64,000 bases of DNA from a virus (IMGVR_UViG_3300033555_000001:246729-310728); one strand, 5' to 3'; shown: positions 27,700-37,715, counted from the stretch's first letter. The notes: a model not told the origin generated them from the letters alone. Numbers and translations: made by a program.

Positions 27700-28110
27700 G
27701 TAATAACGAGTTTCATCATTGGAATAGTAAAACAGCGTAAACTCAGTTTTTGAAAAGTTGAACAGGACGGGAGAGTCGGAGCTCCCCACCTCCACCAAAA
27801 GCGCTCTAGTAAGTCTGCAACGCGATCAGACTTTGAAGGCGGGAAACTTGGACTAAGCGTGACGCCTCTAACAATTCTCTTAAGGGATTGATTTTGGGAG
27901 AGCCAAGTACTAGAGTGTTTTTGATGGGGGTGAATTGGAATCGACTGGCAAAATAGTAAACTACAGAGCGCTCGAGAGATGACCGACGTAATCGGCATAA
28001 AAACCTTAAATGCAAATGATAGCGCATTTTACGGAGACACACGCCTAGCAGCGTGATGCCCGCGAGGCTAACCACCTTGTCACCGAACGGTAGGTAAGAA
28101 GTTTTACCGC
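27700..28110 (+). ncRNA. ssrA: circularly permuted (two-piece) tmRNA
   Basis: Acceptor piece ends CACCTCC-A-CCA at 27797, upstream of the coding piece starting GGGGGTGAATTGGAATCGAC at 27926. Acceptor stem has G3.U70. Tag frame 28012-28056 reads ANDSAFYGDTRLAA*. The outer ends are approximate. Confidence 0.88.
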
Positions 28111-29771: not shown

Positions 29772-29847
29772 GCCGATGTAGCTGAGCGGTTACAGCAGAG
29801 GATTCTAAATCCTAAGATCCCCGGTTCGAATCCGGGCATCGGCACCA
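29772..29847 (+). tRNA. amber suppressor tRNA (anticodon CUA)
   Basis: Canonical 76-nt cloverleaf; anticodon arm GAGGA-TT-CTA-AA-TCCTA; T loop TTCGAAT; A73 and CCA. Confidence 0.92.
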
Positions 29848-35261: not shown

Positions 35262-35606
35262 AAATCATAATTTGATTACAGCCTCGAGGGTCCTGATGAA
35301 AGTCACGACCCTCGAGTTGCATCCGAAAGAAATTGCTGGACCTGGCGAAATAAATTGTACATGTAATAGAAGTAGAGTTATAATGAATCTCTGAACGCTG
35401 CGAACAACATCCAGCGAGTAACAAGATCTTTAACAACTTAGAACACTATTTGAGACTTAGAGATAGGTCTCATTTCAAAGCAGTTTTACACTGTGGTGCG
35501 AGTACGGCTGATAGCCAAATGTCTGCACCATGTTGAATCTTCTGCCAAAGATGATCCGCTGCCTGGCAGGGCTATGGTTAGTTTAACTGCTTTGAAATGA
35601 AAATAT

Positions 35607-35693
35607 GTTGTATCGTCAGAGTTGGAGAGCTGAAGCGGTCTGTAAAATCGTTCGCGCACGCGTGAGTAGGTTCGAATCCTACATACAACACCA
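35607..35693 (+). tRNA. tRNA-Tyr(GUA)
   Basis: Loop CTGTAAA, long variable arm, A73 and CCA. Confidence 0.9.
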
Positions 35694-35751
35694 GATTATT
35701 TGGTAGATGCGAAAATGCAAAAACCGCGGAGTAAAAATTAAAGGAAAATAA

Positions 35752-35985
35752 ATGAATATCTTAAGTCTACAAGAACAAATCTTAAGTCTACAAGAACACA
35801 GAGATGGTTTCTACGTGGTGAGTAACGTGGTGAGTGATGACGTTGGCGACACGATTTGCGTTACTGTTTTCAGACACAACGGTGAAAAATGGGTACGAAA
35901 AATTGGTTACCCAGGTGTTTTACCAACTCTTCCATTTGTTGATATAATGATGAATGAAGATCCACAACTTAAGACTTACGACTAG
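35752..35985 (+). CDS. hypothetical protein
   Basis: AAGGA RBS. Confidence 0.55.
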   Translation: MNILSLQEQILSLQEHRDGFYVVSNVVSDDVGDTICVTVFRHNGEKWVRKIGYPGVLPTLPFVDIMMNEDPQLKTYD

Positions 35986-36152
35986 AATTTTGCCAAGCGA
36001 GTAGCTCTCACTTGACGAATGTCGGGAGTAATTACCCTGACGAACTCTAAAGCTGATGAAATGGTAAACGTGGCTCCGATCAGGAGCCGAGCACACCGCA
36101 AGGTCCTCTTACAGGTTCGAGTCCTGTCCACCAGAGTTCAATGAGATTTTAA

Positions 36153-36248
36153 CCGTACTGATGAGCTCTGTAGAGAGCGAAACGAACAGTGAACAGCCGA
36201 TCGAGCGCTTGGTGGCAGCTCTCGACGCAGTAGCTGTCTCGTATACGG
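36153..36248 (+). ncRNA. hammerhead ribozyme (type I, extended stem III)
   Basis: CCGTA-CTGATGA-GCTCT(GTAG)AGAGC-GAAAC...TCGTA^TACGG; GUA cleavage triplet, predicted cut at 36243/36244. Confidence 0.88.
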
Positions 36249-36318
36249 GCTTGCCTAATGGGTAGGGAAACGCACTTGCAATGCGATGCTAGGAGATCGT
36301 TACTCCTCAGGTCCACCA
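36247..36318 (+). tRNA. atypical tRNA-Ala(UGC)
   Basis: G3.U70, A73, CCA, loop CTTGCAA; shortened 8-10 linker and non-canonical T loop. Confidence 0.65.
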
Positions 36319-36327
36319 GAATTTATT

Positions 36328-36413
36328 GTTGTTTTAGCTTAAGAAGAGCGTCGGGTCTGCCAATATTATTGGTGGACCGGGAGGAGTAGGTTCAAGTCCT
36401 ACAGACAGCACCA
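36328..36413 (+). tRNA. tRNA-like RNA with an extended anticodon arm
   Basis: Acceptor stem, D arm, canonical T arm and CCA are present; about 12 extra nt follow CTGCCA. Confidence 0.5.
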
Positions 36414-36426
36414 GTTTTACAATTAA

Positions 36427-36500
36427 CAGAGATTATGATAGTGGTAGTCGTCCTCGTCTGGACCGAGGAAGCGGAAATTCGATTTTTCCATCTCTGACCA
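36427..36500 (+). tRNA. atypical tRNA-Pro(UGG)
   Basis: C1-G72, A73, CCA; CCTCG-TCTGGAC-CGAGG arm. Confidence 0.7.
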
Positions 36501-36766
36501 ATTTTTACTACAGCACCTATTGTTCTGCACTCGCAAGAGTGGTCAGTAGCATCTGCCGAGGGTAATAATGTCAGTGAGAGTTGGTACTCTCTAGGGGTGA
36601 AAGAAGATGGTGGAACCAACTGCGACATGTGGAATGAGGCATGCGAGCGTTTCAAATCTCCTCAAAGTTAAGTCACTCACCAAGTGACAAATCTTTCTAG
36701 GGTGAAAAATCGCGCGTATCTAACGGATTTAGTAACCTCGGTCTGGTGTAATGCCAGTCAGAATAT

Positions 36767-36839
36767 GCAGGATTTCTCCTGAGAGAGAACTCACCCTTCC
36801 AAGGTGATGGACCTGGTTTGAATCCAGGATCCTGCTCCA
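36767..36839 (+). tRNA. tRNA-Gly(UCC)
   Basis: TCACC-CTTCCAA-GGTGA; C2-G71, U73, CCA. Confidence 0.85.
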
Positions 36840-37044
36840 CTATTAGAAGGATGGTGAGGTCGCACCTCACAAAGTCTCGGCTACTATAACTGCGCCGTCG
36901 GTTATTTTAAGGCGGCAAATAGAGACACCGGATCAAATCTTCGACCTAGTTGATCTACACAATCACACAAGTTAGTTCACTCTAAAGAACTGATTTGCTT
37001 AGCAGGTTTCGGTTCCCTGAGCTTGATAAAACCGTCAGATCAAC

Positions 37045-37121
37045 AGCGGGTTAGAGAAGAAGTCATCTCGCCGGCCTCATAAGCCGGAAATCACGTGGAG
37101 CATTTCCCGTACCCGCTACCA
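37045..37121 (+). tRNA. tRNA-Met(CAU)
   Basis: CCGGC-CTCATAA-GCCGG; degenerate T arm; CCA. Confidence 0.75.
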
Positions 37122-37208
37122 ATATGTTAACCTGCAATACTAGTAATAGTTTACGCGTTTTATTGTATAATTACTCATCTTACTGCAGCGCTAACTAGGA
37201 GAAATACC

Positions 37209-37394
37209 ATGGCCGAAGGACAAGCAACAAAGGAAGCAACGCCGCCGCGTCTCAAGCTTCCAAAGAACTACAAGTGTTCCAAAGAGCTCAAGACTATTTT
37301 TGCCCTTTGTAATTTGTCAGGCGGTGAGAAGCGCGCCATGATGGTGGCACACGCTGCTTCGCTGGTCAAGCAAGTAACACGCGTTAAGTCGTAA
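37209..37394 (+). CDS. small basic hypothetical protein
   Basis: AGGAG RBS. Confidence 0.65.
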   Translation: MAEGQATKEATPPRLKLPKNYKCSKELKTIFALCNLSGGEKRAMMVAHAASLVKQVTRVKS

Positions 37395-37406
37395 TACGGG
37401 GAAATT

Positions 37407-37715
37407 ATGAAGCACTTACTTTTAGCACTGTGTTTACTCCCAGGTATCTCTAGTGCTTCAACCTTTAGTAATGAGGCAGTACCAGTACATGTGTCATGTG
37501 TTAGCAATTTAAAATCCGCGCATTGCGTGCTTGAGAATAAATTAGCTAAGCAAATTACCTGTGAAATACTTGTCAGCGCTGTTACCACTCATGTGGTACT
37601 CCGTAAAAGGGTATTTCAGAACATTCAACCAGGATACTTTGCTACCGTTCAAGTTCTTGCCACACCTGGCACAGCGCTTAAACACTCTACTGGAACTGCA
37701 CTCTGTATTTTGTAA
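37407..37715 (+). CDS. exported Cys-containing protein
   Basis: Signal peptide. Confidence 0.6.
   Translation: MKHLLLALCLLPGISSASTFSNEAVPVHVSCVSNLKSAHCVLENKLAKQITCEILVSAVTTHVVLRKRVFQNIQPGYFATVQVLATPGTALKHSTGTALCIL

Follow-up and report, generated by a model that had tools for sequence, protein, structure and literature searches.

RNase P is regarded as the near-universal maker of transfer RNA (tRNA) 5' ends; it acts in trans and leaves a 5'-phosphate at position +1. Hammerhead ribozymes, in contrast, cut in cis and leave a 2',3'-cyclic phosphate on the upstream product and a 5'-hydroxyl (5'-OH) on the downstream product. In the type I topology the cut lies at the 3' end of the ribozyme, as is needed to define a downstream 5' end, and the ribozyme remains on the upstream product. 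This arrangement has been exploited in engineered hammerhead-tRNA 'transzymes', a design that reportedly originated with Fechter and co-workers in 1998. In such constructs (e.g. PMC3675464), a type I hammerhead is placed 5' of a tRNA, stem I uses the tRNA's own 5' nucleotides, the cut falls exactly at +1 and the product is a 5'-OH tRNA. In natural phage genomes, theta ribozymes adjoin the 3' trailers of tRNAs, and the paper on them makes no mention of hammerheads (Kienbeck et al. 2024, PMC10879173). Hammerheads themselves have been surveyed (Perreault et al. 2011, PMC3088659), and the role of the widespread bacterial and phage representatives has been an open question since their discovery (PMC6155905; PMC3088659). 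Here, a hammerhead directly upstream of a noncanonical tRNA-Ala is described in a 64-kb stretch of viral DNA (IMGVR_UViG_3300033555_000001:246729-310728), hereafter the window, which is the final part of a single 310,728-bp virus record (45% G+C, CheckV completeness 87%). The author of a preliminary description of the locus knew of no account of a natural 5'-side counterpart of theta ribozymes, and full-text literature searches, with subscription journals outside their scope, agree with this, since they returned engineered equivalents only and no natural hammerhead at a tRNA 5' end.

The hammerhead occupies positions 36153-36248 on the plus strand of the window and, as read from the sequence, is a complete type I ribozyme with all core nucleotides present. 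The 5' strand of stem I, CCGUA (36153-36157), leads into the core segment CUGAUGA (C3 to A9, 36158-36164), the stem II hairpin GCUCU-GUAG-AGAGC (36165-36178), whose first pair is G10.1-C11.1, and the second core segment GAAA (G12, A13, A14 and A15.1, 36179-36182). The stem III domain that follows is 61 nucleotides (nt) long (36182-36242); it opens with the pair A36182-U36242, continues through CGA/UCG and ACAG/CUGU with C36238 bulged (basal helix ACGA-ACAG/CUGU-C-UCGU), and then forms an irregular hairpin. The triplet GUA (36241-36243) places A36243 at H17, and the hammerhead consensus predicts self-cleavage between this A and U36244. Finally, the 3' strand of stem I, UACGG (36244-36248), consists of a 3-nt leader, UAC, and of G1 and G2 of the tRNA. 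The core agrees with the consensus throughout (C3 U4 G5 A6 N7 G8 A9, G12 A13 A14, an A15.1-U16.1 pair and an H17 other than G), and of the three helices around it stems II and III are closed and stem I is open, which defines type I. Furthermore, the minimum free energy (MFE) fold of 36150-36250, folded alone, is exactly the hammerhead secondary structure, with 36153-36157 paired to 36244-36248. The complete hammerhead reported in the preliminary description is thus confirmed in every element; the branching ascribed there to the stem III extension is not, as the predicted fold is the irregular 61-nt hairpin.

The motif is also rare. A custom motif scanner, applied to all three hammerhead topologies on both strands of the whole 310,728-bp genome, detected a single hammerhead, and 100 block-shuffled genomes yielded 0.04 type I motifs per genome at loose settings and none with the observed stem lengths. 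A second hammerhead, as would serve for a circular RNA, was sought in the genome and not found. The ribozyme shares its core (CUGAUGA, GAAA, A15.1-U16.1, H17) and its three helices with open stem I with the known phage and bacterial type I hammerheads (RF00163, clan CL00010; PMC3088659), and its CCGUA/UACGG stem I is the same as that of phage hammerheads found in the leaders of open reading frames (ORFs) (L008, L011, L015, L025 and L026). It differs from ordinary type I hammerheads in that it lies inside a tRNA array, scores below the Rfam thresholds, has a stem I whose 3' strand runs into a tRNA, and belongs to a family with a 55-61-nt stem III domain that carries a GAA/AGUA loop. The ORF-leader hammerheads, moreover, have a pseudoknot between loop II and the 3' tail, and none was found in the window.

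Homologues were sought with pattern scans of IMG/VR and JGI metagenomes and then with a covariance model (R1). Apart from the window, they comprise a metagenome contig (L029), two records of 234 kb and 332 kb that are identical to each other at the hammerhead (L003 and L005), two 343-kb records (L087 and L089), and two further loci that are identical to each other (L077 and L090). The covariation set therefore consists of six distinct sequences (window, L029, L005/L003, L087, L089 and L077/L090). The homologues score 57-112 bits with R1, and each complete record searched contains exactly one strong copy. In the six sequences, the 18 modelled pairs are standard in 97.2% of their cells and double-sided changes occur in 12 of them, values that none of 500 column shuffles reached. 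The alignment was fitted to the model R1; controls in which the partners were slid by 1-3 columns gave only 25-39% pairing, and these controls and direct reading of the sequences agree. The changes are spread over all three helices: two of the five stem I pairs covary (CCGUA/UACGG versus ACGCA/UGCGU), four of the five stem II pairs show compensatory double changes, and so do six of the eight pairs of the stem III basal helix. Meanwhile CUGAUGA is unaltered in all six aligned homologues and GAAA is invariant. Contigs from two further glacier or ice metagenomes add two variants, X2 and X3. The X2 variant has the core CUGACGA, a change at the free position N7, a stem II of GCUC-GUAA-GAGC and a wholly re-paired stem III (ACGUUCGAG/CUCGAACGU), and the core nucleotides are retained across eight variants in all. 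Leader variants UAU and UUU occur in metagenome contigs, with UUU in place of UAC in the second of these two variants. This comparative pattern clearly indicates that the hammerhead fold is under selection, and together with the type I topology it upholds the earlier proposal of a genuine hammerhead directly 5' of a same-strand tRNA. Pattern scans of 185,579 prokaryote genomes gave no match, and the D-loop word TAGCTCAG, used as the anchor of another scan, produced nothing but chance matches in coding DNA. Another long-stem-III hammerhead, which precedes a structured RNA (L009), was considered as a homologue and rejected, as its insert is not homologous.

The stem III domain is 55-61 nt long in all homologues, and its GAA/AGUA internal loop does not vary. 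In the window the GAA strand lies at 36191-36193, and all six aligned homologues, as well as X2, have GAA(C/A)A in the same register to the basal helix; the AGUA strand (36229-36232) likewise consists of invariant alignment columns. AGUA lies opposite GAA beside a regular helix, in the register expected of a loop E or sarcin-ricin (bulged-G) module, which makes this loop, known here from its sequence pattern, a candidate for such a module. To our knowledge, no loop E module is known in stem III of a hammerhead. In addition, an apical segment of 22 nt, GAGCGCUUGGUGGCAGCUCUCG, is the same in L029 as in the window, even as the surrounding helices have diverged. Within the apical loop UUGGUGGCA (36209-36217), UGGUGG at 36210-36215 is complementary to the tRNA 3' end CCACCA (6 bp, -9.6 kcal/mol), with a chance of about 0.003-0.016 for a 9-nt loop; the match was found post hoc, and if the whole hammerhead is considered, a 6-mer match has a chance of 0.085. 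A pairing between the apical loop and the tRNA 3' end was downgraded as a candidate, since the UGGUGG loop is kept in L029 and X3 but absent from L005, L087, L089 and L077.

The predicted cut at 36243/36244 lies 3 nt before G1 (36247) of the noncanonical tRNA-Ala(UGC), which extends over 36247-36318 on the plus strand. The alanine identity elements and the expected ends are present, namely G3:U70 (G36249-U36312), A73 (A36315) and an encoded CCA (36316-36318), and the 7-nt anticodon loop CUUGCAA contains UGC (36275-36281); the D-arm, however, is shortened and the T-loop reads AUCGUUA, which are oddities for a tRNA. ARAGORN does recognize the L029 and L005 orthologues, as tRNA-Ala(tgc). There is no ARAGORN tRNA-Ala anywhere in this genome, which leaves 36247-36318 as the sole candidate.

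Since G1 and G2 belong both to stem I and to the acceptor stem, the two helices compete. Enforcing one or the other in ViennaRNA, a comparison that leaves tRNA tertiary structure out, favours the hammerhead in both cases, by 0.5 kcal/mol in the window and by 1.5 kcal/mol in L029. When window transcripts are folded at growing lengths, stem I is part of the MFE structure until 66 nt past its end, when the 3' acceptor strand appears. This modelled series fits cleavage during transcription followed by release of G1-G2. The preliminary description had made the two folds mutually exclusive, and this competition stands, with the two states within about 0.5-1.5 kcal/mol of each other; the overlap itself is not conserved, as homologues have leaders of 3, 7, 18 and 19 nt.

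The homologues all occupy the same slot of a tRNA array. In L029, L005, L089 and L077/L090 this slot is the one after tRNA-Leu(GAG) and before tRNA-Pro(UGG), and in all homologues the predicted cut falls 3-19 nt upstream of a same-strand tRNA or tRNA-like RNA. In the window, L029 and the X3 variant a 3-nt leader precedes tRNA-Ala; in L005 a leader of about 3 nt precedes a 116-nt tRNA-like RNA that ends in ACCA and separates the hammerhead from tRNA-Ala; and the X2 variant has a 3-nt leader before a different tRNA-like 5' end. The leader is 7 nt before a tRNA-like RNA in L077/L090, 18 nt before tRNA-Pro in L089 and 19 nt before tRNA-Thr(UGU) in L087. On the upstream side, the L029 hammerhead begins 5 nt past the CCA of tRNA-Leu(GAG). 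As leader lengths and following tRNAs vary, the G1-G2 overlap and the link to tRNA-Ala are lineage-specific and do not belong to the conserved core of the device; judged from these predicted sites, what stays constant is that a tRNA-type RNA begins a few nucleotides after the cut.

The 116-nt RNA (6019-6134 of L005) occurs in this relative only. It consists of a stem like that of an acceptor, a long arm that bears a UGCA tetraloop in the place of the anticodon arm, hairpins that resemble a variable arm and a T-arm, and ACCA at the 3' side (z = -2.45); no homologue of this insert was found in the genome of the window. In L089 and L077/L090, the post-cut leader, including the 3' strand of stem I, is complementary to the trailer of the next tRNA or tRNA-like RNA, and on a reading of the sequences this pairing would extend the acceptor stem by 7 to about 16 bp and compete with stem I. 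Competition between stem I and a downstream helix can thus be seen to recur, in another form, in L077 and L089.

The preliminary description had suggested that phage genomes be searched for hammerheads close to tRNA 5' ends, and such a search proved productive. IMG/VR was scanned for a hammerhead core followed by a canonical T-loop at tRNA distance, and the motif scanner and ARAGORN were applied to the 21 loci obtained; these contain about ten other hammerhead-tRNA junctions, all of type I, with cuts predicted at the tRNA start or 1 nt before it. In L044, L050, L051 (second unit), L052, L060 and L063 the predicted cut is exactly at +1 of tRNA-Tyr(GUA); L051 (first unit) and L062 look alike but have no ARAGORN tRNA, and in L062 the Rfam tRNA match starts at 2361, right after the cut. 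In L057 the cut would lie 1 nt before tRNA-Gly, and in L055 1 nt before the ARAGORN start of tRNA-His, where the remaining G pairs with C73 and so corresponds to the mature G-1. The 5' strands of stem I vary from case to case and match the 5' end of their own tRNA (CCUGU/GCAGG, CUGGC/GCCAG, UCCGC/GCGGG, CUACC/GGUAG, ACCCUC/GGGGGU and CCACC/GGUGG). The Rfam model Hammerhead_1 aligns end to end with both L051 units, below threshold (20.8 and 16.7 bits versus 34). For the tRNA-Tyr junction of L050 no cultured-phage relative was found, and one further IMG/VR scan, with a specific pattern for a hammerhead at tRNA-Tyr +1, gave no match. As far as predicted junctions can tell, hammerheads that define the 5' side of tRNAs and tRNA-like RNAs are a recurrent feature of phage tRNA arrays, of which the window family is a distinct variant.

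Several of these loci have features of their own. L055 (IMGVR_UViG_3300047160_005224, minus strand, oriented positions 1186-1319) carries one extra G before tRNA-His(GUG); in bacteria, the G-1 of mature tRNA-His normally results from an unusual RNase P cut. L051 (6477-6756 of IMGVR_UViG_3300027834_000005, a 347-kb contig) contains two tandem hammerhead-tRNA-Tyr units; in both, the hammerhead recruits the initial 5 nt of its own tRNA into stem I. L049 (6037-6224), also within a tRNA array, has a match to YrlA, a Y-RNA-like family (RF02553, 69.7 bits, gathering threshold 69), no more than about 11 nt past a type I hammerhead.

These comparisons place the window hammerhead among the known systems. 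Like theta ribozymes, it is a small ribozyme of the self-cleaving kind that adjoins a phage tRNA and for which cis processing of a tRNA precursor can be proposed. It belongs to a different class, however: theta ribozymes are minimal HDV-like ribozymes, with a nested double pseudoknot and a catalytic C, and cleave at their own 5' end. The window hammerhead also lies at a 5' leader, whereas theta ribozymes lie at 3' trailers; they are found in gut phages, whereas the window family is found in jumbo phages of ice, glacier and other environmental metagenomes. Rfam scans of the window gave no HDV-like match, and the relation to theta ribozymes is by analogy of proposed function only. The transzymes resemble the window hammerhead in topology and in the use of tRNA nucleotides in stem I, but they are artificial and cut exactly at +1, whereas the window hammerhead shares no more than 2 nt with its tRNA and is predicted to cut at -3. 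Closer natural counterparts of the constructs are the tRNA-Tyr and tRNA-His cases of IMG/VR. With RNase P it would share an endonucleolytic cut on the 5' side of a tRNA. Since its cut would leave a 5'-OH 3 nt upstream of the tRNA, the hammerhead would supplement RNase P and not replace it.

Taken together, the locus is probably an active type I hammerhead that is built into the polycistronic tRNA-array transcript of a jumbo phage and severs the downstream tRNA block. Its most likely role, as far as the sequences indicate, would be a cis cut that frees the 5' side of the next tRNA, with RNase P still needed here. The hammerhead would be complete once UACGG (36244-36248) is transcribed, about 60 nt before the 3' acceptor strand exists, and would cut between A36243 and U36244. 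The ribozyme, with its 2',3'-cyclic phosphate end, would stay on the upstream RNA, the 5-bp stem I would fall apart, and G1-G2 would become free to close the acceptor stem. The pre-tRNA-Ala so produced would begin with a 5'-OH and keep UAC as a 3-nt leader for host RNase P to trim; leaders of 3-19 nt imply that RNase P would still be needed throughout this hammerhead family. From these features we infer a benefit to the phage, in that the ribozyme would detach the tRNAs downstream of it from the RNA upstream, at a fixed array slot and without the help of host endonucleases.

Several observations weigh against this interpretation. At both gathering and permissive E-values, no Rfam hammerhead model reaches threshold and RF00163 gives no match; the best result is a local 12.8-bit match to HH9 (RF02275, gathering threshold 52) that covers the core and stem II, a failure explained by the 61-nt stem III insert. 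Stem I is only 5 bp long, and no consistent tertiary contact or pseudoknot between stems I and II was found in the homologues, while such contacts are needed for fast cleavage at physiological Mg2+ (Perreault et al., PMC3088659). Pairings between loop II and downstream sequence (AACC/GGUU in L029, AACU/AGUU in L005, UAG/CUA in the window) were considered as a pseudoknot and rejected, being of only 3-4 bp and inconsistent across homologues. The tRNA models miss the window tRNA-Ala, which scores 27.0 bits with RF00005 against a gathering threshold of 29 and is not called by ARAGORN. A search for sequencing runs that contain this DNA found three DNA metagenomes only and no RNA run; the contigs of those metagenomes contain hammerhead variants but no RNA ends. 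Furthermore, a 3-nt leader does not bypass RNase P, so that an advantage is hard to see, and the stem III domain is conserved beyond what cleavage needs, which hints at an additional or different role.

In an unlikely alternative, the hammerhead does cleave, but selection acts on the upstream product, a fragment of about 95 nt with the stem III domain and a cyclic phosphate. The function of this fragment could be that of a stable small RNA or of an RNA that binds a protein, perhaps in the form of a trailer to the upstream tRNA, and the closeness to the next tRNA would reflect tight packing. The conservation of stem III beyond base pairing (invariant GAA(C/A)A and AGUA, 22 nt shared by the window and L029) would be expected on this account, and so would the variation in both the distance to the next tRNA (3-19 nt) and its identity; the start of the L029 hammerhead 5 nt after the CCA of tRNA-Leu(GAG) would also fit. 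However, a tRNA-type RNA begins no more than 19 nt after the predicted cut in all homologues. Unrelated hammerheads with a short stem III are predicted to cut exactly at tRNA +1, which points to selection of the downstream end in those cases, and a trailer with a cyclic phosphate would hinder rather than help the 3' maturation of the upstream tRNA.

The near-equal predicted stability of the mutually exclusive pairings at G1-G2, in turn, could be read as a conformational switch on tRNA output, which we consider more doubtful. Cleavage would occur only while stem I beats the acceptor stem (here) or the leader-trailer helix (L077 and L089), or when a factor binds stem III, or when UGGUGG pairs with the tRNA CCACCA in a T-box-like manner. 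The complementarity of the 3' strand of stem I to the tRNA trailer in L077/L090 and L089, read from the sequences, and that of the apical loop to CCACCA (with its low chance expectation) both speak for such a device. Yet the UGGUGG loop is missing in L005, L087, L089 and L077, its complementarity was noticed post hoc and is less exceptional when matches anywhere in the hammerhead are counted, competition between folds is expected for any ribozyme so close to a tRNA, and no ligand or factor is known. Finally, the missing Rfam match at threshold, the short stem I and the lack of an RNA run might be taken to indicate a chance match or a dead relic that does not cleave; this is very improbable, given that only 0.04 such motifs are expected per genome and that eight variants preserve the core, with both sides altered in 12 of 18 helix pairs. 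Cis cleavage on the 5' side of the downstream tRNA block thus remains the preferred interpretation.

A broader proposal, for and against which the case seems to us evenly balanced, is that phages use hammerheads as a general cis pathway for tRNA 5' ends that mirrors theta ribozymes at 3' ends. In some arrays, stem I would be formed by the acceptor 5' strand and the cut would fall exactly at the mature end (tRNA-Tyr +1, tRNA-His G-1), yielding 5'-OH tRNAs independently of RNase P, while in the window clade a stem III variant with a candidate loop E would cut 3-19 nt upstream at a fixed slot. Phage enzymes may then act on the resulting ends. The genome of the window (G000) and that of a relative (G002) both encode a T4 Rnl1-like RNA ligase (PF09511) and a Thg1-like protein (PF04446), and a 375-amino-acid ORF of G000 combines an AAA_33 kinase domain with a weak HD match at its N-terminus, an architecture which we take to resemble that of HD-Pnk end-healing enzymes; G002 has counterparts. 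The G000 genes lie outside the window, at G000:C1:85561-86169 (ligase), 101029-101427 (Thg1-like) and 222668-223792 (HD/AAA_33). RtcB (PF01139) was not found in G000, G001 or G002. Enzymes of the kinds of the Rnl1-like ligase and the HD/AAA_33 protein act on 5'-OH and cyclic-phosphate ends. The earlier suggestion that the upstream end could be a substrate for RNA repair gains candidate enzymes, the ligase and the weak-HD/AAA_33 ORF, from genome context alone, and finds no RtcB to go with them.

The hammerhead is surrounded by a dense array of tRNAs and tRNA-like genes, all on the plus strand. About 200 nt upstream of it, at 35919-35948, there is a sigma-70-like promoter match, by consensus only. 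When 35500-37500 was compared by BLAST with 50,697 GenBank phage records, the matches were confined to short segments of other tRNAs. A tRNA-like element (35986-36140) lies a short way upstream of the hammerhead, with CCACCA after a canonical T-arm (ACAGG-UUCGAGU-CCUGU) and with the closing stem GAACUCU/AGAGUUC (z = -2.8); it is missed by ARAGORN and Rfam alike, and a diverged copy is present on a glacier-metagenome contig. On the other side, a tRNA at 36328-36410, 9 nt past tRNA-Ala (Rfam tRNA, 37.4 bits), has an anticodon region of about 22 nt where the model expects 9, and it may carry an intron or be without a working anticodon.

Farther upstream, tRNA-Tyr(GUA) at 35607 is preceded, at a distance of 7 nt, by a structured RNA of about 130 nt (35471-35599) with a closing stem of 15 bp. 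Its predicted folding energy is -51.1 kcal/mol (z = -3.9), which none of 200 shuffled sequences attained, and Rfam gives no match to it. In other phages this slot before tRNA-Tyr is that of a hammerhead, and the RNA could be another kind of processing element. The window also contains a permuted, two-piece transfer-messenger RNA gene (27734-28056; RF04321, 104.9 bits) and a canonical tRNA with a CUA anticodon, an amber suppressor (29772-29847), which is labelled 'Pyl' by ARAGORN and scores 70.3 bits with the Rfam tRNA model.

To conclude, the locus would give the widespread phage and bacterial hammerheads a concrete and testable job, the cutting of tRNA precursors on their 5' side. Its stem III domain with the GAA/AGUA loop represents a new structural variation of a much-studied ribozyme, and nature has apparently arrived at the design that biochemists use for the in vitro production of tRNAs. 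Ribozyme-tRNA fusions that assist RNase P, as at this locus, or apparently replace it, as in the tRNA-Tyr and tRNA-His cases, would be a second RNA-based route to tRNA 5' ends and would complete the picture begun by theta ribozymes on the 3' side.
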